A stretch of DNA of 20,000 nt from Candidatus Heimdallarchaeota archaeon (GTDB lineage: Archaea > Asgardarchaeota > Heimdallarchaeia > Heimdallarchaeales > JAJRWK01). The notes under the pieces are model-generated. The model was not told where the DNA came from. It made no database searches and saw only the letters and a program-made list of their open reading frames with translations. Below, piece by piece: positions 1 to 18,102 of this stretch (positions are counted from its first letter, which is position 1; each line of letters starts with the position of its first letter). The position numbers were made by a program, and so were the translations under genes. The stretch spans positions 1 through 20,000 of the forward strand of contig JALTMP010000118.1 in assembly GCA_027001645.1 (NCBI GenBank), given 5' to 3'.

Positions 1-859
1 TCGTTAGACTAAATACGATGATACCAAGTAGTGCTAGACCACCTATTGAAAACCAAGCATCAAAGCTTAGTGCGTTCCTCTCTGCAACCTTGCCAGGATC
101 ATCTAGGTTTTGTAACTCTGCTTTTTGCGTAAAGGTCAAAGTTGCATTGATGATTTCAGAGGACCCTCCTTGGTCGAATAGCATTGTTCCATTCAATGCA
201 CCAGTGGCTTGGTTATCTGACAACAGTCCTGTTTCTACTTCATAATCCATTACAAGGTTGAAGTCAATCGAAGAGGCATTAAAGTCTTGAATCGAAAAGC
301 CTTCTGAGAAGGGCAAAATGTCAGCGGTATCTAGGCCCGTGGCATTGGGAAGATAAAGCCCTAGCCTAAGCGTTAGGAGTGAGGTAGACAAGGTATGATT
401 TGCGGTAATTATGGTTTCGTTTCCAAATAGAAAAGCAAGCTGTCCAATGTATTCCCAAGATTCACCAAAAGCGGGAAGAAAATCATCAATTTCTTGGTAA
501 GCCAGCGGCAGGAGATAAGGAACGCCCCCGTTAGGAATGAATACAGTAGCGTTTTCAGTATCAAAACGCTGAATAGTTACGAGCTGTTCCGTTGTATTGT
601 CATCAATCGTCTGCAAATACCGATATCCGTCGTCAGCTAGTTCAATGAATTCGATTTCAATTGACGTACGATTCTCAAAGGAGATTGGGAACGGAATGGA
701 TGGGCTGGTAATTGAGACTTTGCTGACGGAAAGATAGGTCACCTTGCCACCTTCCCCAATTCCCCAAATAGTGGATTGAATTTGAGCTTGAACGGAAATA
801 CTTGACACCAGAAACAGAATCGCCAATAATGGCAACGTCTTTCGTAAGAGACCAATCAT
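1..859 (-). CDS. Secreted/membrane-anchored protein of unknown function; partial, runs off the left edge
   Basis: Reverse-strand reading from ATG at 859 stays open to base 1: MIGLLRKTLPLLAILFLVSSISVQAQIQSTIWGIGEGGKVTYLSVSK...NALSFDAWFSIGGLALLGIIVFSLT. It has a signal peptide and a C-terminal TM. It is absent from the supplied ORF track because its stop lies outside the window. Confidence 0.8.
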   Translation of the reverse strand, partial: MIGLLRKTLPLLAILFLVSSISVQAQIQSTIWGIGEGGKVTYLSVSKVSITSPSIPFPISFENRTSIEIEFIELADDGYRYLQTIDDNTTEQLVTIQRFDTENATVFIPNGGVPYLLPLAYQEIDDFLPAFGESWEYIGQLAFLFGNETIITANHTLSTSLLTLRLGLYLPNATGLDTADILPFSEGFSIQDFNASSIDFNLVMDYEVETGLLSDNQATGALNGTMLFDQGGSSEIINATLTFTQKAELQNLDDPGKVAERNALSFDAWFSIGGLALLGIIVFSLT

Positions 860-995
860 ACATTTAGAATCTAGAATTTGTTAAGAAATAAGGCTTTACA
901 TTGAAGCTGAAATATAAACTAATGGTGAGAAAAAGAGAGACGCCGGCCAGATTTTGATTTCAAAATTTATTACCTTGCATTTGGATCATACATTA

Positions 996-1697
996 ATGGC
1001 GCGATTGATCCCGCTAATTATGATCATAATGATAATATCAGTGGTAGGAATAGGAATCGTTCCTGTTCAAAGGATCGATGCTCAAGGGGAAAGAGCGGAG
1101 GTCTTCATAAACCGTGATCTCGAAATAATATCGAAACCGTCAGAAGGCAATTCTCTGTTCACGTTCAGTGCGAGTATTACAATCATCAATTACAAGTCAG
1201 AAAACATAGAATTGAAATTCCCCTCCTCTTGCACGTTTAAGATCGGAGTTAATGTATCCTTTGTTGATTCTAGGTTGAGAGCCGAGAGAAAACACGAAGA
1301 TGTGTGCGCACCAGTCGAAACAAAGGTCATTATTAAACCAGGCCAAAACAATTTTAGCGTTGTTGGATCCATCTTGATCTTAGATTGGGCAGATAGAATA
1401 CTTCCAGATGGAAAATATGTACTCTTTGTAACACAGGATTCTTACACAACACCTACAGAATCAGACTATTCTATTCTTGACCCGGAAATCTTTGATAATT
1501 ATGGAGTCATTTTGCTCGTAAATAACGGTAAGTATAGTTTTGAGTTTGATGTTAGCCTGGGGTGTCCTTGCGCATATAACCCCAATAATAATACTGCGGA
1601 TCAAAGCATTACGTTCTCTTCTCTTTTGCTAGGATTCCTCGGACTCGCTGTCATTATGCGTGTCAAACCTTCCGATTCATTTAGAGGAAAAAGGTAG
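996..1697 (+). CDS. Membrane-anchored extracytoplasmic protein of unknown function
   Basis: The track ORF 954..1697 begins at TTG. The ATG at 996 starts directly with the hydrophobic signal MARLIPLIMIIMIISVVGIG. The C-terminal TM is SSLLLGFLGLAVIM. Confidence 0.7.
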   Translation: MARLIPLIMIIMIISVVGIGIVPVQRIDAQGERAEVFINRDLEIISKPSEGNSLFTFSASITIINYKSENIELKFPSSCTFKIGVNVSFVDSRLRAERKHEDVCAPVETKVIIKPGQNNFSVVGSILILDWADRILPDGKYVLFVTQDSYTTPTESDYSILDPEIFDNYGVILLVNNGKYSFEFDVSLGCPCAYNPNNNTADQSITFSSLLLGFLGLAVIMRVKPSDSFRGKR

Positions 1698-2905: not shown

Positions 2906-3921
2906 GTTTCAACACCTTGATTAGTGAGAACTGATGTGAATGCGTCAGCACCTGCTTTTATCAGCTCTTGTTTAATTTCACTTGCGTGATGAACGTTTTC
3001 AGCGAGAGCAATCATACAGCCACCGCCCCCCGCCCCAGTTAGCTTTGCTCCTAATGCCCCAGATTCACGAGCCACCCAAACATAACGATCCAGTAGAGGA
3101 TGACTCACTCCAAGGGCATGGAGTATCCCGTGATTAATGTTCATCAATTCTCCCAGATCTTCGAGATCATTTTTGAGTAACGCATGAAGACCTTGCTCGA
3201 CGATGTCAGAGATAGAGTCGAAGAGGTTCTGAACAGCTTTTTGCTTTCTCTTAAACAAAGACGCAACATTGGAAACCAACGTAGCTGTTGAACGAGGAAT
3301 TCTAGTATTGGCAATAACCAAAGGGATTTCAGTCGAAAGTTCCTTTCTTTCTGGTTTCTGCCCCTTGATAAAATAGACAAGCCCACCTAATGCGATTACG
3401 GTATTATCAATGCCACTTGGCTTTCCATGAGTGAGTTCTTCGCTTCTAAACGCTATTTCCCTTACTTGTAAAGAATCCACTTCTCCATTGAAAGCGGCCA
3501 AGAACGCCCCAACACTACTTGTCGCTACGGACGCACTACTCCCTAGCCCAGCACCAATGGGGATTTCAGAGTCAATAATCAGAGTCGCGTCAAACCCATT
3601 CATTTCTATCAAATTGAGGACATGATAGAAACCTAATGCTATGGGGTCAAGTGGTGTAGCGTTGCCATTGGATCCAGAGGCTTGTCCCAAGGTACGTAGG
3701 CGATCCGACGAAAAGCTTACTTCAAGTCCCATTGCGGGGGATTTCACGATAAGGTGGGAAACATCACTCTTTTTGATTTTAACTTGTGCACGAGATCTGA
3801 GGTTTAGAGCAACTGCAATGGCAGGGGTTCCATGAACAACAGAGTGCTCTCCAAAAAGAATGACTTTGGCTGGGGCAGTAGCACACCCGGTCATGTTTGA
3901 TCCATTATCCGTCATTGTCAT
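2899..3921 (-). CDS. mvk: Mevalonate kinase (GHMP kinase family)
   Basis: GHMP motifs APAKVILFGEHSVVHGTPAIA, IPIGAGLGSSASVATSS, GKPSGIDNTV and GAKLTGAGGGGCMIAL. Confidence 0.93.
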   Translation of the reverse strand: MTMTDNGSNMTGCATAPAKVILFGEHSVVHGTPAIAVALNLRSRAQVKIKKSDVSHLIVKSPAMGLEVSFSSDRLRTLGQASGSNGNATPLDPIALGFYHVLNLIEMNGFDATLIIDSEIPIGAGLGSSASVATSSVGAFLAAFNGEVDSLQVREIAFRSEELTHGKPSGIDNTVIALGGLVYFIKGQKPERKELSTEIPLVIANTRIPRSTATLVSNVASLFKRKQKAVQNLFDSISDIVEQGLHALLKNDLEDLGELMNINHGILHALGVSHPLLDRYVWVARESGALGAKLTGAGGGGCMIALAENVHHASEIKQELIKAGADAFTSVLTNQGVETC

Positions 3922-4087
3922 GAGGTGATGACGTATACATCTTTATGCGTTTATCGACTAAAGGGGGCAGGTAGATTGAATGATGATTTTTGCAAAGAAT
4001 TTCTTAAACACTTAGATTAAGCATAAATCAATGAAAAAGTTGGAAAAAAGGGGTACGCTTAGTCCAACGAGAGGACCAAAGAGCGAC

Positions 4088-4276
4088 TTAACGGATTTTC
4101 CGCTCGTATTTCTTAGTCCACTTAAGTTTTCGGGGATTACGCCCCATTTCAAGCATTGAAACTTTGCATTTTCGACTGCAGAATTTCAGAATGGAACCGT
4201 CTCTCCTAACGTATAAGAAACCTTTCCCAATCGGAATAGTGGAACCACAGAAGTTGCATATTTCTTCCTTGTGCAT
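4088..4276 (-). CDS. rpl24e: 50S ribosomal protein L24e
   Basis: MHKEEICNFCGSTIPIGKGFLYVRRDGSILKFCSRKCKVSMLEMGRNPRKLKWT, a typical L24e C2C2 zinc-binding protein. It is adjacent to S28e and L7Ae. Confidence 0.95.
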   Translation of the reverse strand: MHKEEICNFCGSTIPIGKGFLYVRRDGSILKFCSRKCKVSMLEMGRNPRKLKWTKKYERKIR

Positions 4277-4303
4277 CTTGATTGCCTCCTTGTCTTATCT
4301 CCG

Positions 4304-4534
4304 CTACCTCTTTCGTAAGTTCCTGGCTTCTCGCTCAGTCTCTCGTAGCATAAGGATGTCTCCAATTCGCACTGGCCCCCTCACATTTCGCGTGATAACG
4401 CGTCCCTTATCAGGACCTTCCAAGACTCGAACGCGGACTTGCATTACGTCTCCAACGATACTGGCGCGTCCAACGAGCTGAATTACTTCAGCAGGAGTGG
4501 GGGCATTTTCATCCATTTCACTCATATTTGCCAC
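4304..4534 (-). CDS. rps28e: 30S ribosomal protein S28e
   Basis: [66 protein letters not shown]. Confidence 0.96.
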
Positions 4535-4558
4535 CTTGTTCTTGTGTCAGCACTTTGT

Positions 4559-4918
4559 TCAGAAGAATTCTTTAATTCTCTGAGCAAGCGATTGCACTTC
4601 GGATTTTGCACCACCAGCATCAACGATTGCTGCGGCAGCGGCTTCAACTTCTAGTCCAGCGGCTTCTCCTACTTGTTTGCGAGTAGGAGCAAAAACATAT
4701 GCAATGCCTTTTTCTTGGCAAAGCATGGGGAGGTGAGCGACAATCTCTGGGGGATCAACATCGCCACCAATTACCACTAATTGAGCGGTTCCTCTCTCAA
4801 CTGCTTTGGTAACCTCATTGGTTCCCTTTTTGATTTTCCCGGTATCTCTTGCTCGTTCTAGCAGTCCAAGTGCTTCGTTTACAATTTCTTCAGGCAATTC
4901 GAGTTTCTTTAACGCCAT
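4559..4918 (-). CDS. rpl7ae: 50S ribosomal protein L7Ae (kink-turn binding)
   Basis: RARDTGKIKKGTNEVTKAVERGTAQLVVIGGDVDPPEIVAHLPMLCQEKGIAYVFAPTRKQVGEAAGL. Confidence 0.97.
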   Translation of the reverse strand: MALKKLELPEEIVNEALGLLERARDTGKIKKGTNEVTKAVERGTAQLVVIGGDVDPPEIVAHLPMLCQEKGIAYVFAPTRKQVGEAAGLEVEAAAAAIVDAGGAKSEVQSLAQRIKEFF

Positions 4919-5061
4919 TTTATGTACACCTTCCTCGGCTTGTTATAGCCTCTGATCAGCAATTTGAAAGCCTATTTGGATCATTAAAAAAGTTCCCATG
5001 TGTGTTATTCAAGCACGGGACAGAAAAGGAGGAGATGAGAAAAGAATTACCTCGTAAACGA

Positions 5062-6993
5062 TTAGGCTTTTCTATATCTTCGAGCAAGGATCGGGATCAT
5101 AGCAAGGGGAATGATGAAGTAAACAGAGGAGAAGGAAACAAAAGAGGTTCCCTCATCTGTTGTTGTGTTTTCCCCGGGTTCACCGGCGGGTTTGAGGGGC
5201 GCAGCTGAAACAAGGTTGGATTCAGGGCTTTTACCTAGAAAATTGACTGCGACGATTTTATAATAATAGGTAATTTCCGGGTATACGCTTGAATCAACGA
5301 AACTGCTCCCTGTCGTTGTGGCATACAGTTTAAATGGTCCCGTCTCTCGGCCACCCCTTAGAATGTATACCTTTTCGATCGGCAAGCCACCAGTATCTGG
5401 AATAGTCCAATTCAGGACAAGTTTACCCTCATCAGGAGTAATCGAGAGGATTGGAGCGCCGGGCTTCGTGAGAATTCCTCTTGAAGTATTTACCATCAGT
5501 GGATTAGATTTAACACCTTCGTTTCCACTTGTGTCTACTGCGGTTATTTCGTACCGGTAGATGAGATCTGGCGTTAAGCCTGTATCATTGAAAACAGTTT
5601 GAGTTTGATTGGCAACAACGGTGTCATTTCGATAAACAAGGTAATACGCAAGGTCATTTTCAGTGTTCTCATTCCATGTTAGCTGAAATGCAGTGGAATT
5701 AAGTACAGTTCCATTCAATCCATGGGGGGAAACAGGCGGGCGGAGATCATATGATCTCCAATCCATATTGAACCATGCATTTACAGGCAGATGGTCTGAA
5801 CCAACCTTTCCACTAGGTGTTTCTCCTGTAGTAGAATTAATCAACGCATCAAAGAAGTATTGATTCACAAAGATGTAGTCGATTCTGCTTTGATAGAATG
5901 GATCAATATAGGTATATCCTGGATTGTAAGGGTTCAATTCACGATACACATCGATAAACTGGTGTTTTTGGGAAGCTCGAGGATCGGAGCTGTTTAGCAA
6001 AATGGAGATTGGTTCATCGCCAAGTGCCAAATCATTTGGTGCCAGATCAGGGTTGTTTGTGTCTACGGGGGAGAACGAATTAAAATCTCCAGCATAAATG
6101 ATAGGAACATCGCCAAGTTCGTCAAAATAGTTGAGAATTCCAATTGTGTCAGCCAAACGTTGTCTTTGAGGAGCTCCTGAAGAATCACTGCAACAACGAT
6201 AGTGAGTGACAACAACGTGGACGTACATACTGCCTATTTCAACTACAGCATCTAGGAAATCATGCGCAGGCTTTATCTTGGTACCGTCATCAAGGGTTAG
6301 GGTCGAGATTTGATTGAACTCAACGATTGGGAATCTGCTGAAAATGGCTTGACCATCAGTGACAGATACTGGTTTCGTAACTCTGACATCGTATGGTGTT
6401 TCATCGGAGAAATACGTGTTGAATTCGTTAAGGATCTCCACTAGCTCAGGATCATTCTCGCTGGTCCAGCCACCAGTTTCAACAGCCACAAAAATATCCG
6501 GATTCTCCTCTTTGACAGCTTCCTTCCAAAGTGGGTTTCGCCCCGTTTCCCAGATATTGTAGTTGAGAAGTTTCCATACACCGCTTTCATAGTTGGAGTC
6601 GACAGTTACCGTAATGGATGCACTGCCTACATTTCCAAAAGCATCTGTCGCCTGCGCTTCTATCGTGTGTTGGCCACTTGTAACGTTGTAAGTATCCCAC
6701 TGATAGATGGTAACATTTTCAGCAACCACGACGTTATCTATGAGGATCTGATACTCAGTAATGGCGGAATCATCAGTTGCATTGAAGTAAATCGTGACAA
6801 TGTCGCCAACAGTTTCATCTGCTGAAGGATTCAGAAAAGTGATGGTGGGCGCGGTAGTATCAGATTGCTGCAAGATCGGTGTTGATTGCTTGCTAAAATC
6901 AATGAAGCCAACCACACTGGCTCCCGATATTGCCAAAGATAAGATGGTAAGAAAAACCAAGAACAGTCTTGTGTTGTGTTTCATATGGATCAC
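5062..6993 (-). CDS. Secreted, membrane-anchored endonuclease/exonuclease/phosphatase-fold protein with Ig-like and fibronectin type III domains
   Basis: Signal peptide NTRLFLVFLTILSLAISGASVVG; Ig-like repeat SADETVGDIVTIYFNATDDSAI...; EEP catalytic motifs YNIWETG, VAVETGG, YAGDFNSFSP, IDYIFVN and GSDHLPVNAWF; two FN3-like repeats (PPVSPHGLNGTVLNSTAFQLTW..., PGAPILSITPDEGKLVLNW...); C-terminal TM plus basic tail (YFIIPLAMIPILARRYRKA). Confidence 0.85.
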   Translation of the reverse strand: MIHMKHNTRLFLVFLTILSLAISGASVVGFIDFSKQSTPILQQSDTTAPTITFLNPSADETVGDIVTIYFNATDDSAITEYQILIDNVVVAENVTIYQWDTYNVTSGQHTIEAQATDAFGNVGSASITVTVDSNYESGVWKLLNYNIWETGRNPLWKEAVKEENPDIFVAVETGGWTSENDPELVEILNEFNTYFSDETPYDVRVTKPVSVTDGQAIFSRFPIVEFNQISTLTLDDGTKIKPAHDFLDAVVEIGSMYVHVVVTHYRCCSDSSGAPQRQRLADTIGILNYFDELGDVPIIYAGDFNSFSPVDTNNPDLAPNDLALGDEPISILLNSSDPRASQKHQFIDVYRELNPYNPGYTYIDPFYQSRIDYIFVNQYFFDALINSTTGETPSGKVGSDHLPVNAWFNMDWRSYDLRPPVSPHGLNGTVLNSTAFQLTWNENTENDLAYYLVYRNDTVVANQTQTVFNDTGLTPDLIYRYEITAVDTSGNEGVKSNPLMVNTSRGILTKPGAPILSITPDEGKLVLNWTIPDTGGLPIEKVYILRGGRETGPFKLYATTTGSSFVDSSVYPEITYYYKIVAVNFLGKSPESNLVSAAPLKPAGEPGENTTTDEGTSFVSFSSVYFIIPLAMIPILARRYRKA

Positions 6994-7089: not shown

Positions 7090-9066
7090 TCAAGTACTAC
7101 TCTCTGAATTCTTTGTTCCACTCTCGCAAATAATTTGTTGATAAGCCCCAATCCAGTCATAGGCAATGTGAACAACGTATTTCTTGAGATGCGGATAACG
7201 CGAGGGGATCACTTCTACTAGATTCATGTCGATTTTTTCCTTAATGTTAGTAAGGGCTTGATCATGGTCCTTCGCAATAAGTACTTGATAAGACTCTAAT
7301 GTTTTGACCAGATCAGAACGAGTAAACATCCCCACGAGCAGATATTGTTCACTTTCAGGATTAGGAATTACTACCGGTAGTCGCCCCACCCCATATCGAT
7401 ACATTTTATCGAGCGTTTCCTTAACGGTGTCATCTGGAAAGGCTACCACAACTTCCTTTGTCATAATTCGCTTAATGGGTTGTTCGAGATCATTTGCAAT
7501 AATCGCTTTCCGAATATCCGAGAGAGTTACGATTCCGACGAGTTGATGAGTTTCTCGATCAACCACAGGATAGCCTTGGTGATGATAGGAAACGAACACA
7601 TCGAACATCACGCTGGCGGGTGTATCTTCATAAATTGCTACGACCTCATTGTGCATAACTTCGCGAACAAGAATGAATTGTAAGATTTCATCAGTAGTTC
7701 GTACTTGTGAGGTAATGCCGTATTTCCCAGCTAAGGGCTCAGTGTAAATAGATTCTTTAAGAATGGATTTGTGAATCAGAAAACTCGTGGCAATTGTGAG
7801 CATGAGTGCCGGGAACAGAGCATATTCTCCAGACATCTCAGTAGTGATTATGATCATGGTTAACGGAGCACGGGCAACACTACCAAATAGTGCGGACATC
7901 CCGAGAACAGCATACAAGCCTGGGTTGATATGAAGTCCCGGAAAGAGCAAGGAAAGGAAAATCCCAAAAGCAGCACCAGTCAGCGCTCCCATGAATAGAG
8001 AAGGCGAAAAGACACCGCCAGAAGAACCAGAGCCAAGCGTTAGGCTAGTAATGATAATTTTGATGAAAGCGTATGCTAAGAGGAGAAAGATCAATTTTAG
8101 AGCTTCGCTACGAGCAATGTCTGAGCTATAGTTCCATCCATTTAGCGCTTTTTGAATAACAGAATAGCTTGAACCTCGCAATTCCAAAGAAACGGTTACA
8201 AGAAAAATGCCAACACCTAGTCCACCAATGCCTGGTTTTGCCCAAGGAGGTAACGAAAGTTGTTCAAAGGTGTCTTCAGTGAATTTCAATGTTTCTTGCC
8301 AGATTACTCCCTCAAAAGCAATGACAACTCCCAGAATGACAAAAAGAATGAATTCAACGGGATGGTGAATTTCATAGGGGGGAACTTGAAACACGCTTTC
8401 AAACCCTCCAAGAATCACATAGTTAGTCGTCATTGCTGACGAAACACCGATGATCACGGGAATTACTGATCTAAATGTAATTGAAGCCAAAAGGATTTCA
8501 ATTCCAAAGAGGGCTCCGCCCAAGGGAGCGTTGAAAACAGCAGCAATGCCTGATGCTGCGCCAGTTGCGATTAGAATGTTTTTTTCACTTGAGGTTAATC
8601 GCGCTTTTTGGCCCAAGATTGATCCAAAACCCGCACCGATCTGTGCAATAGGCCCTTCAGAGCCGGCGCTATTTCCTGTTCCAATCGTAATCATCGACAA
8701 TACAAATTTGGCCATAGGGACCCTCATTCGCATGTTACCTTTATCGATAATCATGGATTGTAATACATTAGGTATGCCATGACCTTTAGCTTCAGGCGAG
8801 ATTTTCCACACACCATATCCAACAATAAGACCACCGATAGCAGGCAAAAGCACTATCGCAATTACAGTCATTCCACGGAAGAGCTCGTGTTGTTGGACAT
8901 ATCGGAGAAAGCGGTTTTGATTCTCTTCGCTGAAAAGCCAGTAATCGATCAGATCAATGCCCTTTCTGAAAAGAAATCCACCGATTGAAGCAACGACTCC
9001 TATTGCTATTGCGTACAAGTCTAATTCCACATCATGATGATGTCTCATTGCGTATATCTCATTCAT
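7090..9066 (-). CDS. ClC-family chloride channel/transporter with tandem C-terminal CBS domains
   Basis: Multiple TM helices; ClC signatures GTGNSAGSEGPIAQIGAGFGS, FNAPLGGALFGIEILL and TLGSGSSGGVFSPSLFMGALTGAAFG; tandem CBS regions (VREVMHNEVVAIYEDTPAS..., IKRIMTKEVVVAFPDDTVKETLDKMYRYGVGRLPVV). Confidence 0.93.
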   Translation of the reverse strand: MNEIYAMRHHHDVELDLYAIAIGVVASIGGFLFRKGIDLIDYWLFSEENQNRFLRYVQQHELFRGMTVIAIVLLPAIGGLIVGYGVWKISPEAKGHGIPNVLQSMIIDKGNMRMRVPMAKFVLSMITIGTGNSAGSEGPIAQIGAGFGSILGQKARLTSSEKNILIATGAASGIAAVFNAPLGGALFGIEILLASITFRSVIPVIIGVSSAMTTNYVILGGFESVFQVPPYEIHHPVEFILFVILGVVIAFEGVIWQETLKFTEDTFEQLSLPPWAKPGIGGLGVGIFLVTVSLELRGSSYSVIQKALNGWNYSSDIARSEALKLIFLLLAYAFIKIIITSLTLGSGSSGGVFSPSLFMGALTGAAFGIFLSLLFPGLHINPGLYAVLGMSALFGSVARAPLTMIIITTEMSGEYALFPALMLTIATSFLIHKSILKESIYTEPLAGKYGITSQVRTTDEILQFILVREVMHNEVVAIYEDTPASVMFDVFVSYHHQGYPVVDRETHQLVGIVTLSDIRKAIIANDLEQPIKRIMTKEVVVAFPDDTVKETLDKMYRYGVGRLPVVIPNPESEQYLLVGMFTRSDLVKTLESYQVLIAKDHDQALTNIKEKIDMNLVEVIPSRYPHLKKYVVHIAYDWIGAYQQIICESGTKNSESST

Positions 9067-9348
9067 CCCAATCGCCTTGTAGATTCAAGGTTGAAATCCT
9101 ACGGTCTTCCCATTACAAATAAGGGAAGAAAGGTGAGATAGGCCTTGAAGGTTTTGCCGGTCTGGACCGCGATCATTATGACACGAAGTCTAATAGCCAT
9201 GCTCAAATTTGCGGAAGATACTATAATGTTTCCGAAATGTGCTTAGATGATTTTACGAGACAAGATTGATTGAACAAGAAGAAGAATGCAAGTTACGAGA
9301 AAAAGGTAAAGAGGAGATAGAGGCCAAAACCCGGTAGTATTGCTAAAC

Positions 9349-11370
9349 TTATGTTGTTGATTCTGGCTCGAGTTCAAAGGTTCTCAGTTTACGATAAACA
9401 AAAACGGCGAAAACAGCAACAACGCCAACAGAAACAAAGAAGATTAACAGAAAGAAGGGTGAAACGTCATTGTAAGTAGGATCCTCACGTTCAATGAGAA
9501 TCGTTGCTTCCCCGCGTGCAAATCCTAATCCTGCTTGTTTTGCCTCGACAACGATATCCACATAGCCTTTAATCTTACTTCCATTCGGAAGAGCAAACGA
9601 GAGCTCGTGGGTATAATTAGTTGCGGTTGCATTCAACGTGAGATTGTAGCGTGCGAAAACATTGCCAGCTTGGGAAAGCAGAACTTGAACAGTCGCGTCA
9701 CTTGCGGTTTCGTTCAGGTTTTGATAAACGCCGGTTTTTACCATAATTGTGTCGGATTGGCTGTACCGATAGCGATCAGTAATGGTACTATTCACTTGCA
9801 AAAAGCCGTTGAATTTGGCAAGCCAGGGAAGAAGCCGGAGGAAAAAGACATCGTTGTCATTTATCACAAAAGACTGATTCGTGAGGATCAAGTCAGTGGA
9901 CATTGCAGCAAGTCTTCCTCCAAATTGAAGATCTACACCCAAGAAATAAGTGATGTTCCCTGGAAGTGTCTCGTTTGACTGTCGGACACCATCAGTGTTT
10001 GAGTCAAGGAACATATCAGCTGGAGTCTTGAGAATGTCGTAGAGCAAGTATTCTTGTGCAAATAGTGTGTCATTCTGTTTTAACAGGGTTAGATTTAGAC
10101 CAGAAGCATACAATGAAAGAGTGTTTATGATGCGATCGGTCAGTGGTGAAGCCCCATCTAGGAAGGGAGCAACTCCTTTAATGGTTGTAGCAGAAACTGT
10201 GGCGGTTTTAGTCCCGTTCTCACCAACCTTGCCAAATAAGAATTGTCCGTTAGAGACCGTTTGAAGGCCAAAAGTCTCCAAGAGCTTTTGAGCGGACTCA
10301 GAAACATCTTTGCTCACAACGAGGAAGAGAGAACCACCATCCCTGACAAACTGACGGTATGCTTCAATTTCATCGTCCGAAAAGTCATTATTTCCAACAA
10401 CGAGAATGGTCAGGTTATTGTTCTGCAATGTTTCTAATGTGACATCGTCCGTTTGATTGTTCAGAGTTACGCCATAGGATTTGAGAACTGTTTCGAATCC
10501 TTTGAGTGAAGCAGCATTGTCAATACCCCTAGTGTCAAAAAGAATTGTTGCATTTGAAACGGGGGCAACAGTGAATCCGGTTCCAGTCTGGTTGAGGCGA
10601 TAATTGAGCCAATCAGACTTGAGTACCGTTGTTGTGTTGAATTCCACTGATGCGTTTTGCCAAGCAAGGATTCTAAATGAGACAAGAATACTGTCATTAA
10701 TGTTAATATCGTATCCTTTTGCATCCTCACTATTAAGCTCTTTATACAATTCAAGGACAACGACATTATCCCCGGCGTCTGAGAAGTTTGCTCGAACGCC
10801 TCCAGTGTTGTCAAATCCACCGACGTAAGTGTCGTTTTCAACAATTGGAACGGAGTTATCCTTTGTACCATTCATGTAGACAAATGCATCAACAACTGAC
10901 GAATTGTACCTATCAACCACAATCAGATCGTGAGGAGCGTCAGCTGTCCCATACTCTTTCCGCGTTAAATCATTATCGAATTCGAAAGCAAACCAATCAT
11001 GAGTTGCATTATTATATGATAGTGGAGAATTTGTTGGAATAGTATCATTTACGGGGATAAATGAAGGACGGGAAAAATTCAGCATGATGAATAGATGTGT
11101 CCCATTAATTTGGACAAAGAGGTCTCCATTGAACCCAGCATCACCGCCAACGTTTACAGTGGTCTTCGATGCGTTGACCCATTCAAGCCCGAAGGAGCTT
11201 GAGTTGCCATCAAAGGTTGGGGTATTGTTTGCAATGATTGGGATGACAACGGTTTCTGTATCATCTCCCAACACACGAGCAGGACCTGGCGGGCTAAAGA
11301 ATAGAACTGTTGCAAGCAGTGCCAGGATAGATATTCGGGTGAATAATCGACCTCTATTCATATCACTCAC
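9349..11370 (-). CDS. Large secreted surface protein, N-terminal DOMON/carbohydrate-binding-like region, central Rossmann/GATase-like segment, C-terminal TM
   Basis: Signal peptide RISILALLATVLFFSPPGPARV; VNVGGDAGFNGDLFVQINGTHLFIMLNFSRP resembles a DOMON/CBM9-like start; TILVVGNNDFSDDEIEAYRQFVRDGGSLFLVVS; C-terminal FFLLIFFVSVGVVAVFAVFVYRKL. Confidence 0.65.
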   Translation of the reverse strand: MSDMNRGRLFTRISILALLATVLFFSPPGPARVLGDDTETVVIPIIANNTPTFDGNSSSFGLEWVNASKTTVNVGGDAGFNGDLFVQINGTHLFIMLNFSRPSFIPVNDTIPTNSPLSYNNATHDWFAFEFDNDLTRKEYGTADAPHDLIVVDRYNSSVVDAFVYMNGTKDNSVPIVENDTYVGGFDNTGGVRANFSDAGDNVVVLELYKELNSEDAKGYDININDSILVSFRILAWQNASVEFNTTTVLKSDWLNYRLNQTGTGFTVAPVSNATILFDTRGIDNAASLKGFETVLKSYGVTLNNQTDDVTLETLQNNNLTILVVGNNDFSDDEIEAYRQFVRDGGSLFLVVSKDVSESAQKLLETFGLQTVSNGQFLFGKVGENGTKTATVSATTIKGVAPFLDGASPLTDRIINTLSLYASGLNLTLLKQNDTLFAQEYLLYDILKTPADMFLDSNTDGVRQSNETLPGNITYFLGVDLQFGGRLAAMSTDLILTNQSFVINDNDVFFLRLLPWLAKFNGFLQVNSTITDRYRYSQSDTIMVKTGVYQNLNETASDATVQVLLSQAGNVFARYNLTLNATATNYTHELSFALPNGSKIKGYVDIVVEAKQAGLGFARGEATILIEREDPTYNDVSPFFLLIFFVSVGVVAVFAVFVYRKLRTFELEPESTT

Positions 11371-11587: not shown

Positions 11588-11600
11588 TGCATAAAAGATG
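11588..11600 (+). promoter_or_regulatory. Candidate Box A for the 11616/11622-12662 gene
   Basis: TGCATAAAAGATG lies about 20-28 nt upstream of in-frame ATGs at 11616 and 11622. Confidence 0.4.
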
Positions 11601-12662
11601 TTTTTTTCTAATTCTATGTCTATGCCACGACTAGCTGTTGAGGATTCTGAAGAGTATAAGCGCTTGTCATTTGAAATAAAAATCCTCCAACAGCTCAAAG
11701 CATACTACGAAAGTGGGAAGAACTTTTATGACTTTGAGCTAAAGGACGGGGTTAGATTAAGAGATGTCATTGCATTCATGGCCGATTTTGGCTTCCCAAG
11801 ATCTAGTTCTGCGCCAAACATACCCCAAGCAATTAAGAGAATCAATGAAATGATCAAGGAAAGGCAGGACAAGCTAAGTAGCATGAGATTTTCAGAGATC
11901 AAATCACGTGCCCTTGATTCTTTACTCATCATCCCCTCATGGAATAGGCTGCTCAAGCGAAAATTCAATGGGTTTTACCTCAATAAGCCAGTAATAGACC
12001 TAAAAAGAGACACAATTGTCATGCTTACTGCGGGAACAGCGCAAGTTGCAGATTTTTACGGAGACCCTCTCGCAATCATCACAGGACCAGGGATATTCTA
12101 TACCGAATTCAGTATTGAGCCGGGGAAGTATCTGACGAATGTTCGAGAAATTAATATGATCATCATGCCCAAGGAACATTTTGATCGCTTAATTTCAGCT
12201 CCATCAATAGTCCAAGGGAATATCGATGCAACCGTTAATGAGTTAATGTGCATGATGCCGTTTCATATCATTGAGACACCTTACAGCGTTCAAGCATTAA
12301 CGAGAGGGGTTGTTTCAAGAAACGTGTTCCATCCCAACAAATCCGCACTCGACGCCTTGTGGCGTACTTGTAAGGACCCCACGTCATATCACCCCTCACG
12401 TCGATTTTCGGTGCTTAGTGCACACCCTCACTTTTACAATCGACTCTTGTTATCCCACCCGAGAGGATCTCAAGGCGGCACAGAAGACATTTCCTATCAC
12501 TTCGCCAGCGCGGGCATAGCTGCAATCTTGGATAACGCCGATCGACTGGTAGCAGAAATCATGTCAGAAGAACAACAAGCAGAACTCTTGAAAAAATTCG
12601 TCAAAGTAAAGGAAGAATACGCTTCTTTCGGACATGAACTACTCATGAGCTGGGCGCCTTAG
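11598..12662 (+). CDS. Conserved-looking protein of unknown function, 354 aa; the true start may be ATG 11616 or 11622
   Basis: Long ORF on +. A Box A-like ATAAAAGATG at 11591-11600 overlaps the track start, which argues for a leaderless start at 11616/11622 (MSMPRLAVEDSEE). Confidence 0.75.
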   Translation: MFFSNSMSMPRLAVEDSEEYKRLSFEIKILQQLKAYYESGKNFYDFELKDGVRLRDVIAFMADFGFPRSSSAPNIPQAIKRINEMIKERQDKLSSMRFSEIKSRALDSLLIIPSWNRLLKRKFNGFYLNKPVIDLKRDTIVMLTAGTAQVADFYGDPLAIITGPGIFYTEFSIEPGKYLTNVREINMIIMPKEHFDRLISAPSIVQGNIDATVNELMCMMPFHIIETPYSVQALTRGVVSRNVFHPNKSALDALWRTCKDPTSYHPSRRFSVLSAHPHFYNRLLLSHPRGSQGGTEDISYHFASAGIAAILDNADRLVAEIMSEEQQAELLKKFVKVKEEYASFGHELLMSWAP

Positions 12663-12783
12663 CAAGACTTTACTTGCAAAAAGAGTTTCCCAACCAAGAA
12701 ACAAGTGGGAAGACAAGCAATTATAATCCAGCAAGTGCATATAAGATATAGAGAGTGGACACCAGAAGCAAGATCCAAGAGGA

Positions 12784-13518
12784 GTGAGAGTATTGACAGA
12801 ACAAAAGAAAAAGAAAAAGAAGTCTATTCGCCAAAAACTTGCGAGCAAATTTTCCCAGATAAAGAAAAAGCCCGAAGATGAAAATTTACTTGCAGAAACA
12901 ATCTCAGAATTAAAGTCAGTAGTCCGGGATATGAAAGAAATTTTTGAGGAAATCGACAAGACCTTTGAGGAGGAAACTGAAAAGGAAAAGACTTTTTGGG
13001 ATAAGCTGAAGTCAAAGATGCCTCAACGGCTCCAGCCCCAAGACATTAGAAAAGAAAAGCAACAGAAACAAAAGATCAGAAGCAACAAGGAACGACTGGA
13101 AAAACTTGAGGATGCTTTGAGTCAGTTTGAAGCGATTAGCACAATGCCAGGAAAGGAAGACATGCTAGCAGAAGAATACTTGAAATTACTTAAGCAAGAT
13201 ATGGGTTCAAAGTTCAAGGATGAGGACTTGGAGAAAGTAATTGACGAGATGAAACTAGAAATTTATCGGTCGATGGAAGACATTAATGCTCAGATTCGCT
13301 TGTTGAAAACAGCCCTTGAAACAATCACGGAGCAACTGACAGAACAAGGCATTCAACTTGAGCGCATTGAGGAAAAAGTTGATGTAGTCGACAAAAAACT
13401 CGACAAAGCTCAAGAACTCATCAAAAAAGTTGCTCGACGATTAACAGGAAACAATGTTCTCATCTTAGTGCTTGCGGGCTCAGTGCTAAGCCTACTTGCC
13501 CTGAGCATTATCCGTTAG
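12784..13518 (+). CDS. Tail-anchored coiled-coil protein with Q-SNARE-like motif
   Basis: GTG start at 12784; an in-frame TTG at 12793 has better spacing from AGAGGAG. SNARE-like segment MEDINAQIRLLKTALETITEQLTEQGIQLERIEEKVDVVDKKLDKAQELIKKV (residues 164-216) followed by C-terminal TM VLILVLAGSVLSLLALSII (residues 225-243). Confidence 0.8.
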   Translation: MRVLTEQKKKKKKSIRQKLASKFSQIKKKPEDENLLAETISELKSVVRDMKEIFEEIDKTFEEETEKEKTFWDKLKSKMPQRLQPQDIRKEKQQKQKIRSNKERLEKLEDALSQFEAISTMPGKEDMLAEEYLKLLKQDMGSKFKDEDLEKVIDEMKLEIYRSMEDINAQIRLLKTALETITEQLTEQGIQLERIEEKVDVVDKKLDKAQELIKKVARRLTGNNVLILVLAGSVLSLLALSIIR

Positions 13519-14337
13519 AGAAACAATGCGCTCCAGTGAAATAATTTCTTTGATAGAGGGAAGAACAGTCACTTGATTGGGCTTGATCCCGTTTTTCATA
13601 AGAACGTTGTCAGCAGTCTCTCTTGAAACAACTCCTGTAAGCACCAAGATGGGGTGAATTCCCGCGACAATACTCCCTTTGATGTCTGTTTCTACCCTAT
13701 CTCCTACAAAGATCACTTCTTCTTTCTTTAAATTCAATTTTTCTAACATTCTTGTGTAGAGAAAGGGAGATGGCTTTCCACAAATGAGATCTGGCTCTTT
13801 TCCGACTGATGCCGTGAGGGCACTAACTAATGCTCCAGCGCCAGGGATAAAAGAGCCATTTGCTTGAGGTAGTGTCAAATCGGTGTTTGTTGCAATAAAC
13901 TTAGCTCCATTCATGATGTGATTCATTGCGATTTTGAGCTTTGCATAAGTACATTGTCGATCTAAACCAACTACTACATAGTCTGCTTTTTCGTTTTCAG
14001 AAGTGATGACTTGTAGATTTGCTCTTTTCAATTCATTGACTAGGCCTTGCTCTCCAATTACAAAAACAGATGCGTTTCTTTTTTCAGAGGCGATGGTCTC
14101 TGCAGCCATCATGGCAGAGGAAAGTATCTCATCCGCCCTAAAGTCGTAACCCAAGGCATGTAACTTTTCCAACAAGCTTTCACGATCTCTAGTTGAGTTA
14201 TTAGTTATTATCCCCACCTTAATTCCTTTTTCTCGCAGAAATTTAATTGTCTCGGGGCCACCTTTGATAGGCTCACTTCCGCGATACAAAACACCATCTG
14301 CATCAAATAGACAGCCGTTGATAGATAGTTTTCTCAT
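13492..14337 (-). CDS. HAD superfamily (subclass IIA, NagD/p-nitrophenylphosphatase-like) sugar or glycolate phosphatase
   Basis: INGCLFDADGVLYRGSEPIKGGPETIKFLREKGIKVGIITNNSTRDR; KPSPFLYTRMLEKLNLKKEEVIFVGDRVETDIKGSIVAGIHPILVLTG. Confidence 0.9.
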   Translation of the reverse strand: MRKLSINGCLFDADGVLYRGSEPIKGGPETIKFLREKGIKVGIITNNSTRDRESLLEKLHALGYDFRADEILSSAMMAAETIASEKRNASVFVIGEQGLVNELKRANLQVITSENEKADYVVVGLDRQCTYAKLKIAMNHIMNGAKFIATNTDLTLPQANGSFIPGAGALVSALTASVGKEPDLICGKPSPFLYTRMLEKLNLKKEEVIFVGDRVETDIKGSIVAGIHPILVLTGVVSRETADNVLMKNGIKPNQVTVLPSIKEIISLERIVSLTDNAQGK

Positions 14338-15542: not shown

Positions 15543-15737
15543 TCAGATAGAAAAGCGAATAATTTCGTCTATCAAGTCCACGTGTGAGACAATCATTCTT
15601 CGACAGCATACTCTTGTAAGCCCGAGATCGTCTAGGACCTGCTCAGGATTCTCACCTTCGTTTACTCTCTCTACCCATTCTTCCCATTTGTCGGCAACAA
15701 CTTTTCCACATGTAAAACAGCGAACTGGAATCATCAT
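15543..15737 (-). CDS. rpoN: DNA-directed RNA polymerase subunit N (Rpb10 homologue)
   Basis: [63 protein letters not shown] has the characteristic CxxCG...CCRRM zinc site. Confidence 0.97.
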
Positions 15738-15814: not shown

Positions 15815-17662
15815 TCATCTCCAGACTTTGTGTGGTCCGAGTAGTTTATTCTTCCTCATTGTAAGGCGTTCAATCTCTTTTTTCAACTTTCGAATCTTGC
15901 TCTCAATTTTTTCGATTTCTAAATGAACGGCGGAGATTTTTTCTTCAACATTGTCAAGTTTTCTCTTGTAATTCAAAAGGTCCTTATCCAGCGCTTTGAT
16001 TTCTTCTCTTATTCTATCGATTTGAGCAGATTGTTGAGCTTTCCAGCGTCTTTTTTTAAGAATCTGCTTTCTAGTTAGTAATGTTCTCAACTCGCTCTTT
16101 ATGGAATTCGCAACGTCTGTTAGGGTCTGAACTTCTTTTTCCCGCTCATGTTTTTCGTTTTGAATGGACCGCAAACGAGATTTCTTCTCCTTGATTTCTT
16201 GTTCGATTTTTTCAGCATCACGGAGGAAACGGAGCAGGCTCTGGTAATATTTGAATAGGAAATTTGTCGGCTTTTGTCGCTCTTTTGTCTCGGTATTACG
16301 TTGATTACCCAATTCTTCTAGAACATGCGGGAGGTCTTCCACAAAAACAACGGGAATGTTATTGATTTCCTGGAATGGCTCTGGCACACTGCTGACAAAC
16401 AAGGATAGCACTTCTTCTGCCCCAAACTCTTTTCGGATGTGATCTTTCCTTAGCTCCATTTTCTCGACTGCTTTCTCGTAGTAGTTGCGCTTTCTTTCGG
16501 AGCCTCCAAAGATCCAACCTGCCCAGAAGCTGTAATCCTTAACTTCGATCAAAATGTATTTTTCTTGCTTTTCAGTGCTTCTGGCAATCATGTCAATCTC
16601 AGTAATGACACGATCGTCATCGCCTTCGTTTTCTACCACTTCGTATCTTGTGTTGACAATTTCCCATAGGGGCGATTCTTCAATAATATCTCTTACGGCT
16701 TCTTCTGCTAATCTTGCTTTGTCTTCCAGTTCCTCTAGGTCAAATGATTCGAGAAAAGTGGTGAATAACATAAAGGCTTCAAGCCCAATGAGGAAGACAA
16801 CTTTGCCTTCTTCCTCTCCTTCATAAATTGAGACTTGATGGGCGGGCTGTTCGATTCTCTTAAGATTAACATCACTTAAAGCATACAGAGCTTTGGCTGT
16901 TGATGAGTGAATTTTTAGCTTCAGTTTAAATAGAGTTCCGTGAGCAGTTGAGATTTCTGGCATTTCTCGCAACTTATGGCTAAGCCGTATTAACGCTTCA
17001 ATTTGCTCCGGTGTAAGCATGGTCATCGATCTGTAGAATGTGACAGGTGATCGAAGGAACATCAGAAATGCATTTCTGCGATGCAGTTCTAACACAGAAA
17101 GCGGAATATCCCAGTCATGGAATCCTTTACGATAATGAGTTCTTCGTTGTCTTTTCTTTCTCCACTGCAATCGCGCAACGTCAAGAGCGGTTCCCGCTAC
17201 TTTGACATCAAAAGAATGAATACGACTAAAGTGTCTTTCTCCACGCTCGGTTGGGCGAAGTTCGCCATTGACTTCTTCAAAAAGGCGGTTTTTGATAGCT
17301 TGTCTAAGAGTATGGATAAGAACTAGTTCAGAACCGAGGATTGCTAATTCACGGGTGGCACGGCTGATAGGAAGCCCTCTTGATGGTTGGGGTCTCCAGT
17401 CTTCCCACCGAAGAATTGTGTGCAATACGACATCGCATCCTGAGAGCATAATAATGGCAGGAAGACGAATCTGCGTAGTAAATTCTTCTCTAATCTTAAT
17501 GAGTTCCTTTATTAGCTCTCGTTTAGAATATTCAGAGGCTAGTTGATAGATTCTAGTCTTGACATATTTCCAGCGATCCTCCAGAATTTCTTGGGCATTC
17601 TTGTTCGACACAAATTGATCTGCACTTATTTTCCGAGGTTCTCGCTCCATTAAACTCTCCAA
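15815..17662 (-). CDS. Large protein with PD-(D/E)XK-nuclease-like segment and long C-terminal coiled coil
   Basis: RVITEIDMIARSTEKQEKYILIEVKDYSFWAG matches the D-Xn-ExK pattern. The last ~150 residues are Lys/Glu-rich heptads. Confidence 0.6.
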   Translation of the reverse strand: MESLMEREPRKISADQFVSNKNAQEILEDRWKYVKTRIYQLASEYSKRELIKELIKIREEFTTQIRLPAIIMLSGCDVVLHTILRWEDWRPQPSRGLPISRATRELAILGSELVLIHTLRQAIKNRLFEEVNGELRPTERGERHFSRIHSFDVKVAGTALDVARLQWRKKRQRRTHYRKGFHDWDIPLSVLELHRRNAFLMFLRSPVTFYRSMTMLTPEQIEALIRLSHKLREMPEISTAHGTLFKLKLKIHSSTAKALYALSDVNLKRIEQPAHQVSIYEGEEEGKVVFLIGLEAFMLFTTFLESFDLEELEDKARLAEEAVRDIIEESPLWEIVNTRYEVVENEGDDDRVITEIDMIARSTEKQEKYILIEVKDYSFWAGWIFGGSERKRNYYEKAVEKMELRKDHIRKEFGAEEVLSLFVSSVPEPFQEINNIPVVFVEDLPHVLEELGNQRNTETKERQKPTNFLFKYYQSLLRFLRDAEKIEQEIKEKKSRLRSIQNEKHEREKEVQTLTDVANSIKSELRTLLTRKQILKKRRWKAQQSAQIDRIREEIKALDKDLLNYKRKLDNVEEKISAVHLEIEKIESKIRKLKKEIERLTMRKNKLLGPHKVWR

Positions 17663-17760: not shown

Positions 17761-18102
17761 GTGGATACGACATGCCCAAACTGTGGAACGATTAATCCGT
17801 CGGATGCGGCATTTTGTTCAGAATGCGGTAAGGTTCTGAGCGAAACAAGCACGGATGAAAAAACAGGAAAGGTCACTAACCTCGACACTAGTCCTGAACT
17901 AAGGTTTCATTCATCAAAAAGATCTTTGGCCAAAGCGGTTCCGATTTGGATTTTCTTGTTCTTTATTGATTGGGCTACTGGTGAGAAAGGTATCAATTGG
18001 GCTTATTGGGTAGTGGTTCCCTGGTTTGTGTTTGGTCCTTTAGCCTCGTTTCTAATGGAGTTATTGGATGTTGAAGAAGAGAAAAGCCTAGTGGACCACT
18101 GA
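17761..18102 (+). CDS. Zinc-ribbon small membrane protein
   Basis: GTG start; N-terminal CPNCGTINPSDAAFCSECG zinc ribbon; hydrophobic segments AVPIWIFLFFIDWATG and YWVVVPWFVFGPLASFLMELL. Confidence 0.75.
   Translation: MDTTCPNCGTINPSDAAFCSECGKVLSETSTDEKTGKVTNLDTSPELRFHSSKRSLAKAVPIWIFLFFIDWATGEKGINWAYWVVVPWFVFGPLASFLMELLDVEEEKSLVDH

Follow-up and report, generated by a model that had tools for sequence, protein, structure and literature searches.

Eukaryotic membrane fusion is built around SNARE proteins, whose origin is an open problem of eukaryogenesis. In eukaryotes they work as QabcR heterotetramers together with NSF/SNAP and SM proteins. Native prokaryotic candidates have been limited to four Heimdallarchaeal proteins published in 2019/2020, the Heimdallarchaeota Prototypic SNAREs (HPS) described by Neveu, Khalifeh, Salamin and Fasshauer (bioRxiv 10.1101/810531; Curr Biol 2020). 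Two of these, HPS1 and HPS2, assemble with neuronal SNAREs into complexes in vitro, and in the published tree the family makes up a clade of its own outside the four eukaryotic SNARE types; its authors allow roles in tethering or bending (bioRxiv 10.1101/810531). More recent papers continue to cite these complexes, formed in vitro, as the functional evidence that comes closest to an Asgard vesicle-fusion machinery. Here we analyze a 20,000-nt stretch of DNA, called the window below, from a Candidatus Heimdallarchaeota archaeon (positions 1 to 20,000 of contig JALTMP010000118.1, assembly GCA_027001645.1), which carries a gene that we assign to this family as a proto-SNARE.

The Legionellales SNAREs (e.g. 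LseA) are also SNARE-motif proteins of a prokaryote, but they are bona fide SNAREs of eukaryotic type, acquired by transfer. They score at E < 1e-10, and in most of them a CAAX box takes the place of the tail anchor (bioRxiv 10.1101/810531), whereas the HPS protein is tail-anchored and belongs to a deep archaeal-only lineage. The window gene adds a well-supported member to the HPS family and leaves knowledge of the class unchanged. What goes beyond the preprint is the finding of tandem paralog pairs, of histidine variants at the zero layer, and of a wider spread of a conserved neighbor of about 345 residues. The expanded family, the paralog pairs and the partners are handles for experiment, and the subject is timely since Heimdallarchaeia with internal vesicles are now cultured.

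The window gene and the HPS family

In BLASTP the encoded protein aligns over its full length with HPS2 (OLS22354.1; 37% identity, E = 2e-42), HPS1 (PWI47941.1; 27%, E = 2e-22) and OLS23218.1 from LC_3 (25%, E = 2e-18), the published sequences having been copied from the supplement of the paper and contain optical character recognition errors. These matches confirm that the class is already known, as a first-pass annotation of the window had said in naming the prototypic SNAREs of Heimdallarchaeota. A neighbor-joining tree of 26 family sequences has two clades and places the window protein inside the HPS2/LC_2 clade, where together with P0002 and P0003 it forms the sister group to the HPS2 group (P and L numbers are our handles for proteins and loci). 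On sequence evidence the gene is a native Heimdallarchaeial member of the HPS family, within its HPS2/LC_2 clade. A word-indexed search of 5.8 billion proteins returned only four homologs. A profile search run exhaustively over 1.84 billion cluster representatives gave 26 matches at E ≤ 0.001, all of which we read as family members or fragments. At 50% identity the family now has 20 clusters or more. When the GTDB genomes were scanned with the HPS alignment nothing was returned, because the peptide patterns chosen came from the poly-Lys run and a single short motif.

The window protein resembles HPS2 in its length class, polybasic start and helical N-terminal region, in a 53-residue motif with Q-G at its center, in a tail anchor preceded by a short basic linker, and in having a neighboring ‘protein of unknown function’ of the same kind. 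It differs in being a distinct sub-lineage and in the arrangement of the neighboring gene, which is tandem in the window and reversed beside HPS2. HPS1 and OLS23218.1 share with it full-length homology, identical motif geometry and the spacing from the central Gln to the transmembrane (TM) helix. They belong, however, to the other major clade, which is followed by a Roadblock/LC7 gene that the window does not have, and the N-terminal poly-Lys run that is present in members of the HPS2/LC_2 clade is absent from the HPS1 clade.

The first-pass annotation had described the open reading frame as encoding a tail-anchored protein, and this holds: the product has 244 residues, with a single C-terminal TM helix and one residue after it. 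The highest mean Kyte-Doolittle hydropathy over 19 residues is 2.82, hydrophobic 19-residue stretches begin only at residues 220-226, and there is no second TM segment besides V225-I243. By hydropathy the product is a type-II protein with a tail anchor. An amphipathic helix of ~70 residues forms the end of the cytosolic part and shows SNARE layer geometry, with 15 hydrophobic layers and one buried polar Gln. The C-terminal sequence quoted in the annotation is identical to the translation, in which every residue that had been named for layers −7 to +8 is found where it had been placed, including Q188 at the zero layer. The earlier count of 36 residues between Q188 and the TM helix matches the one obtained by hydropathy.

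An N-terminal charged helical region of ~150 residues had also been proposed. Residues 1-150 are 47% charged (37 K/R and 33 D/E), and AlphaFold2 predicts helices at residues 30-68, 86-120, 125-140 and 146-154; the region carries a conserved LPxxLQ motif (P80, Q84). The model of the whole monomer is all-helical, with a moderate predicted local distance difference test score (pLDDT) of 69.8. Neveu et al. predicted a three-helix bundle for the HPS N-terminal region (bioRxiv 10.1101/810531). Neither the Pfam scan nor the fold search of the window protein supports a true Habc domain.

We compared the anatomy of the motif in 21 family sequences, down to 20% identity. At the 15 hydrophobic layers, −7 to −1 before the zero layer and +1 to +8 after it, 81-100% of members have a hydrophobic residue. 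The zero layer is Gln in 18 of the 21 and His in three, and Arg is found there in none; the equivalent of G189 is present in all 21, a higher conservation than that of the Gln before it. The spacing from the zero layer to the TM helix is 36-38 residues in every member, with no indels between them, and all have a single C-terminal TM helix followed by 0-5 residues. The central Gln and the layer register on which the first-pass annotation relied are therefore kept in the orthologs. The heptad pattern extends beyond the 16 layers, both N-terminally (residues 153, 156 and 160) and into the linker (L220). The His variants are P0010 (L037 and L038), P0014 (L031 and L032) and P0021, the position corresponding to 13345-13347 of the window. 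Independent assemblies contain exact copies of P0010 and of P0014, and their zero-layer His is therefore not a sequencing error.

Some Heimdall lineages carry two HPS genes in tandem. The pair in L033 (6416-7132 and 7189-7911) encodes proteins 36% identical to each other. In L034 (1-375 and 362-1129) the first copy is ended by the contig edge. The third pair encodes proteins of 217 aa and 238 aa, in L035 at 7264-7929 and 7956-8714 and equally in L036 at 3802-4467 and 4494-5252. The zero layer is Gln in every tandem copy. Such pairs are not in the preprint or its supplement, which give one gene per genome, and they could form heteromeric bundles. An Arf/Ras-family small GTPase gene is found ~4 kb downstream of the pair in L035 (12463-12978; GCA_048938655.1).

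Similarity to eukaryotic Q-SNARE motifs

The 21-member alignment was compared with five eukaryotic SNARE motifs using hhalign, giving a probability of 95.1% and E = 3.2e-8 over 57 columns. Probabilities against the SNARE motifs were in the range 95-96.5%, and Q188 was placed on the zero-layer column. The syntaxin-6 motif is that of PDB 2NPS chain D. Of the other four motifs, three were confirmed by a database search, with syntaxin-1A at 100%, and SNAP-25 and VAMP with E about 1e-22 to 1e-19. The syntaxin-1A string to which the first-pass annotation had likened the central sequence, VESQGEMIDRIE, is genuine, with a 100% database match (P0035).

Using single-sequence templates the similarity differs between types. 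The probability is 90% for syntaxin-6, 77% for SNAP-25 SN1, 61% for SNAP-25 SN2 and 5.5% for syntaxin-1A, and the zero-layer register is correct in all four cases; synaptobrevin, of the R type, gave no profile match. These values equal or exceed those of most comparisons between eukaryotic types made in the same way. Searches of the PDB gave a similar picture. With the single protein the best matches are all to SNAP-25 (E = 0.0026), and Q188 falls on the zero-layer Gln of both of its motifs (Q53 in one). The resemblance to SNAP-25 proposed at first pass is seen in the HMMER alignment, where LTEQGIQLERIEE is paired with SNAP-25 LDEQGEQLERIEE / LDEQGEQLDRVEE, Q on Q. A profile of the small family matched syntaxin-6 first and also SNAP-25, and syntaxin-6 is the closest human SNARE in the HPS paper as well (bioRxiv 10.1101/810531). 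The profile of 21 members matched syntaxin-6, -7, -13 and -1, SNAP-25 and SNAP-29.

Profile comparison thus shows a specific, in-register similarity of the family to the eukaryotic Q-SNARE motifs, at a sequence identity of only about 20%. The earlier description of the motif as Q-SNARE-like stands to this extent, and does not lead to an assignment to Qa, Qb or Qc. Profile similarity, layers and topology agree in supporting membership of the eukaryotic SNARE superfamily, while no Pfam SNARE model reaches its formal threshold.

The window protein is nearest to syntaxin-6 (Qc) and SNAP-25 SN1 (Qb), with which it shares 16 layers of heptads, a Gln zero layer and, locally, LxEQGxQLxRIEE. The tail-anchor logic is like that of eukaryotic Qc and Qb SNAREs, in which the TM helix lies about 37 residues after the zero layer; SNAP-25 differs in having no TM helix and two motifs. 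Long N-terminal helices followed by a SNARE motif and a TM helix are also the order of a syntaxin-type Qa protein (Habc, H3 and TM), and the zero-layer Q-G is found in syntaxin-1A. Yet the profile match to this type is weak, and in the window protein the motif follows the N-terminal helices without a long linker.

Proposed membrane fusion or tethering, and the alternatives

The best explanation of the gene, to which we give a probability of roughly three in four, is an HPS-family proto-SNARE with Q-SNARE-like zippering that acts in membrane tethering, bending or fusion. We infer that fusion or tethering would proceed via parallel four-helix bundles. The protein would be inserted post-translationally through its tail anchor. 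Several copies would then zip their SNARE-like helices together, starting at the N-terminal end and closing toward the C-terminal one, to give a parallel four-helix bundle in which the zero layer is all Gln, and a rigid link to the TM helix would pass the force of assembly to the membrane, leading to tethering, bending or fusion. The bundle would be homo-oligomeric in this genome region, because only one HPS copy is present in the 20-kb window; hetero-oligomers would be possible in the lineages with tandem paralogs. The helical N-terminal region might fold back on the motif to give an autoinhibited ‘closed’ form, with a hinge at the invariant Q-G.

A number of observations weigh against this explanation, some concerning function and others the identity of the motif. 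The complexes of HPS proteins with neuronal SNAREs are promiscuous, and their stability is below that of the cognate ones (bioRxiv 10.1101/810531). A cultured member of the Heimdallarchaeaceae with internal vesicles has been reported without clear SNARE homologs, so vesicle dynamics there need not rely on the HPS family. The latter observation also fits a genuine HPS protein that does not fuse membranes, but is a scaffold in cis, a tether, a membrane shaper, or an anchor that recruits its neighbor (a Roadblock/GTPase module in the other clade). The pairing of the HPS gene with the 345-residue neighbor, held in 6-7 lineages and through an inversion, is also in keeping with this, as are the Roadblock/LC7 pairing of the other clade and the tethering or bending that the authors of the family themselves permit. 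Moreover the Pfam and NCBIfam scans of the window proteins brought up nothing NSF-, SNAP- or SM-like in the 20 kb. On the other hand, the strictly fixed spacing between zero layer and TM helix, and the heptad that runs into the linker at L220, are what force transmission needs, and HPS1 and HPS2 can occupy helix positions in real SNARE bundles. We regard a role of this kind without fusion as the main rival, though rather unlikely.

The observations on the motif raise the possibility of a generic tail-anchored coiled coil, in which heptads and a chance central Gln have converged on a SNARE appearance without homology. A Pfam search had been proposed at first pass as a check, and its outcome is divided. 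The SNARE models are among the matches, V-SNARE_C (PF12352) with 21.1 bits (E = 3.9e-4; gathering score 27.1) and SNARE (PF05739) with 13.9 bits (E = 0.055; gathering score 26.8), but neither reaches its threshold. Across the family SNARE matches 13 of the 21 members and V-SNARE_C 12, with best E-values of 2.1e-5 and 7.5e-5 respectively. These two models have the most matching members in Pfam, but the generic coiled-coil families NPV_P10, Baculo_PEP_C and DUF1664 match similar numbers of members with similar E-values. The NCBIfam scan gave only coiled-coil noise of the SMC type. A designed coiled coil (E = 1.4e-7) heads the PDB list of the 21-member profile, above the natural SNAREs, and no eukaryotic SNARE was recognized among the 26 matches of the exhaustive search at E ≤ 0.001. 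Comparison of the protein model with the PDB using Foldseek returned only generic or designed helical bundles, none at E ≤ 0.001. The AlphaFold2 monomer breaks the motif at residues 188-192 (13345-13359), giving two helices and not one. The break at Q188-G189 may be the hinge of the closed form, or an artefact of single-chain prediction.

Convergence is nevertheless quite improbable in the light of a permutation control, in which whole heptads of the family alignment were shuffled so that composition and the a/d pattern were kept. The real order gives an hhalign score of 47.2. None of 200 such permutations reached this value (mean 24.3, standard deviation 4.7, maximum 43.2), placing the real score 4.9 standard deviations over the mean, and the reversed alignment scored 12.6. 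The family Gln falls exactly on the zero-layer column in four independent comparisons with Q-SNAREs, and in all 21 members there is a single polar layer among 16, at a SNARE-like position relative to the TM helix. The published complexes with neuronal SNAREs also argue against convergence.

Bacterial SNAREs taken from eukaryotic hosts exist, as in the Legionellales, but contamination or recent transfer of a eukaryotic SNARE gene is very hard to credit for a gene with equal composition to its archaeal flanks in a 45-kb archaeal contig, with synteny across several Heimdall metagenome-assembled genomes (MAGs), with about 20% similarity to any eukaryotic SNARE and assignable to no type, and whose family stands apart from the four types in the published tree.

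The locus, its conserved partners and the gene ends

The coordinates of the gene and its elements are collected in Table 1. Base composition is uniform over the window. Archaeal genes lie on both sides of the proto-SNARE gene, those in the region encoding RpoN (15543-15737, minus strand), L7Ae, S28e, a pair of mevalonate kinase and isopentenyl-phosphate kinase, and a CLC channel. The order 345-residue protein, HPS gene, HAD hydrolase, APH-type kinase, RpoN and 611-aa protein recurs in other contigs, and the syntenic loci include several MAGs titled Candidatus Heimdallarchaeota. The protein has identical copies in public assemblies (a 45-kb ENA metagenome scaffold and a Logan contig). Between the window gene and its 89%-identical ortholog in L005 the nonsynonymous (pN) and synonymous (pS) differences are 0.053 and 0.84 respectively, values that we give because the synonymous divergence (dS) is saturated. 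The ratio pN/pS = 0.064 indicates strong purifying selection on the gene.

Table 1. Position of the proto-SNARE gene, its elements and the adjoining conserved gene in the window
Feature	Position	Strand	Basis or remark
Conserved neighbor gene	11598..12662	+	354 aa from 11598; 346 aa from ATG 11622; adjoins HPS gene
A/T-rich TATA-like elements (AAGCAATTATAAT ... CATATAAGATATA)	12716..12750	+	Upstream-region alignment, conserved with L005
Shine-Dalgarno-like AGGAG (inferred)	12780..12784	+	Read from sequence; 8 nt 5' of TTG 12793 candidate
HPS-family proto-SNARE gene	12784..13518	+	Open reading frame, 244 aa, GTG start; alternative TTG 12793 gives 241 aa
N-terminal polybasic run K8-K13	12805..12822	+	K9-K13 invariant in the closest four homologs
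Helical N-terminal region, residues 30-154	12871..13245	+	AlphaFold2 model, pLDDT about 70-83 there; conservation
SNARE-like motif, layers −7 to +8 (M164-V216), 53 residues	13273..13431	+	Layer conservation, hhalign, PDB and Pfam matches
Zero-layer Q188 and invariant G189	13345..13350	+	Translation; codons read QG
Basic juxtamembrane linker A217-N224 (ARRLTGNN), 8 residues	13432..13455	+	Conserved hydrophobic L220 continues heptad
C-terminal TM helix V225-I243, then R244 and stop (tail anchor)	13456..13512	+	Hydropathy

The gene that adjoins the proto-SNARE gene on its upstream side belongs to a family of proteins of about 345 residues, in which the motifs SRNVFHPNK, GPGIxYTEF and SAH are strongly conserved. 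It was found only in Heimdallarchaeia, in 21 species-level genomes by genome scan and as 37 clusters by protein search, with cluster names that include Heimdallarchaeaceae, Kariarchaeaceae, Hodarchaeales and Ca. Heimdallarchaeum aukensis. The two genes are adjacent in the window, L005, L003/4/6, L001/2, L007 and L037, and lie 2.7 kb apart in L008; examples of the neighbor are at 8886-9926 (minus strand) in L001, 2389-3426 in L003 and 2-1039 (minus strand) in L037, and the family is also represented in L005-L026. The genes are in tandem in some lineages and divergent in others, over a range in which HPS identity falls to about 32%. More distant genomes have no HPS gene within 6 kb of the neighbor gene. 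The protein has no sequence match in Pfam, NCBIfam or the PDB. Its AlphaFold2 model (pLDDT 81.3) has helical ends around a long β-sheet core, and finds no Foldseek match in the PDB at E ≤ 0.001, with TM-scores ≤ 0.16. A Roadblock- or longin-like fold, which would have united the gene contexts of the two clades, was considered and dropped, as none is present among the 50 Foldseek PDB matches listed. Neveu et al. drew a ‘protein of unknown function’ next to the HPS genes of LC_2 and J059, which is probably this one. We see in it a candidate regulator or partner of the proto-SNARE.

In the HPS1 clade a Roadblock/LC7 gene lies directly downstream on the same strand, in L029 (995-1495), L031/L032 (1844-2434 and 1843-2343 respectively) and L030 (2365-2532). 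It encodes a MAPKK1_Int-like protein of 166 aa that scores over the Pfam cut-offs (31.7 bits in L029, cut-off 23). We had considered both pairings as new, and rejected this since both are already drawn in supplementary Figure S2.2 of the preprint (bioRxiv 10.1101/810531) for four genomes, the Roadblock pairing for B3 and LC_3. Only their wider distribution is new.

The clade-specific partners (the 345-residue protein and the Roadblock/LC7 GTPase platform), together with tandem duplication in at least two lineages, may point to a proto-SNARE that is the membrane-anchored core of a regulated module. The module would differ between Heimdall clades, and the Q-G hinge would be its switch from closed to open. 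This is a tentative proposal, with the odds well against it. If it were true, the 345-residue protein could be a functional analog of a SNARE regulator, and with heteromeric bundles of tandem copies a division of labor like that of QabcR would have begun.

The start of the proto-SNARE gene has two candidates, and the gene callers differ, with database entries of 244 and 241 aa; TTG 12793 is the start in one entry. The ATG start of the closest ortholog (L005, 4068) reads GTA in the window, on comparison at 12784-12795, so the gene must begin at GTG 12784 or TTG 12793. The TATA-like elements conserved with L005 make up a putative archaeal promoter. At its other end the gene shares 27 nt (13492-13518) with the 3' end of the HAD-hydrolase gene, which converges on it (13492-14337, minus strand); the pair in L003 has no such overlap.

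Scans of the window for tRNA genes and Rfam families were empty, and no other gene in it encodes a protein with both a single-TM tail anchor and a coiled coil. A zinc-ribbon protein of 113 aa (17761-18102, plus strand) has one hydrophobic segment close to the C-terminus, at residues about 81-103, that is tail-anchor-like, with no coiled coil. A protein of 615 aa (15815-17662, minus strand) matches no Pfam family and has a C-terminal coiled coil of ~130 residues that gives only noise of the SMC/Rad50 type; L003 and L028 also have this conserved protein next to RpoN. Finally, a protein of 673 aa (9349-11370, minus strand) matches the DUF4350 and IFT52-GIFT domains, the latter with a score barely over the cut-off of Pfam. 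Hydrophobic segments at its two ends make it a probable surface-anchored protein.

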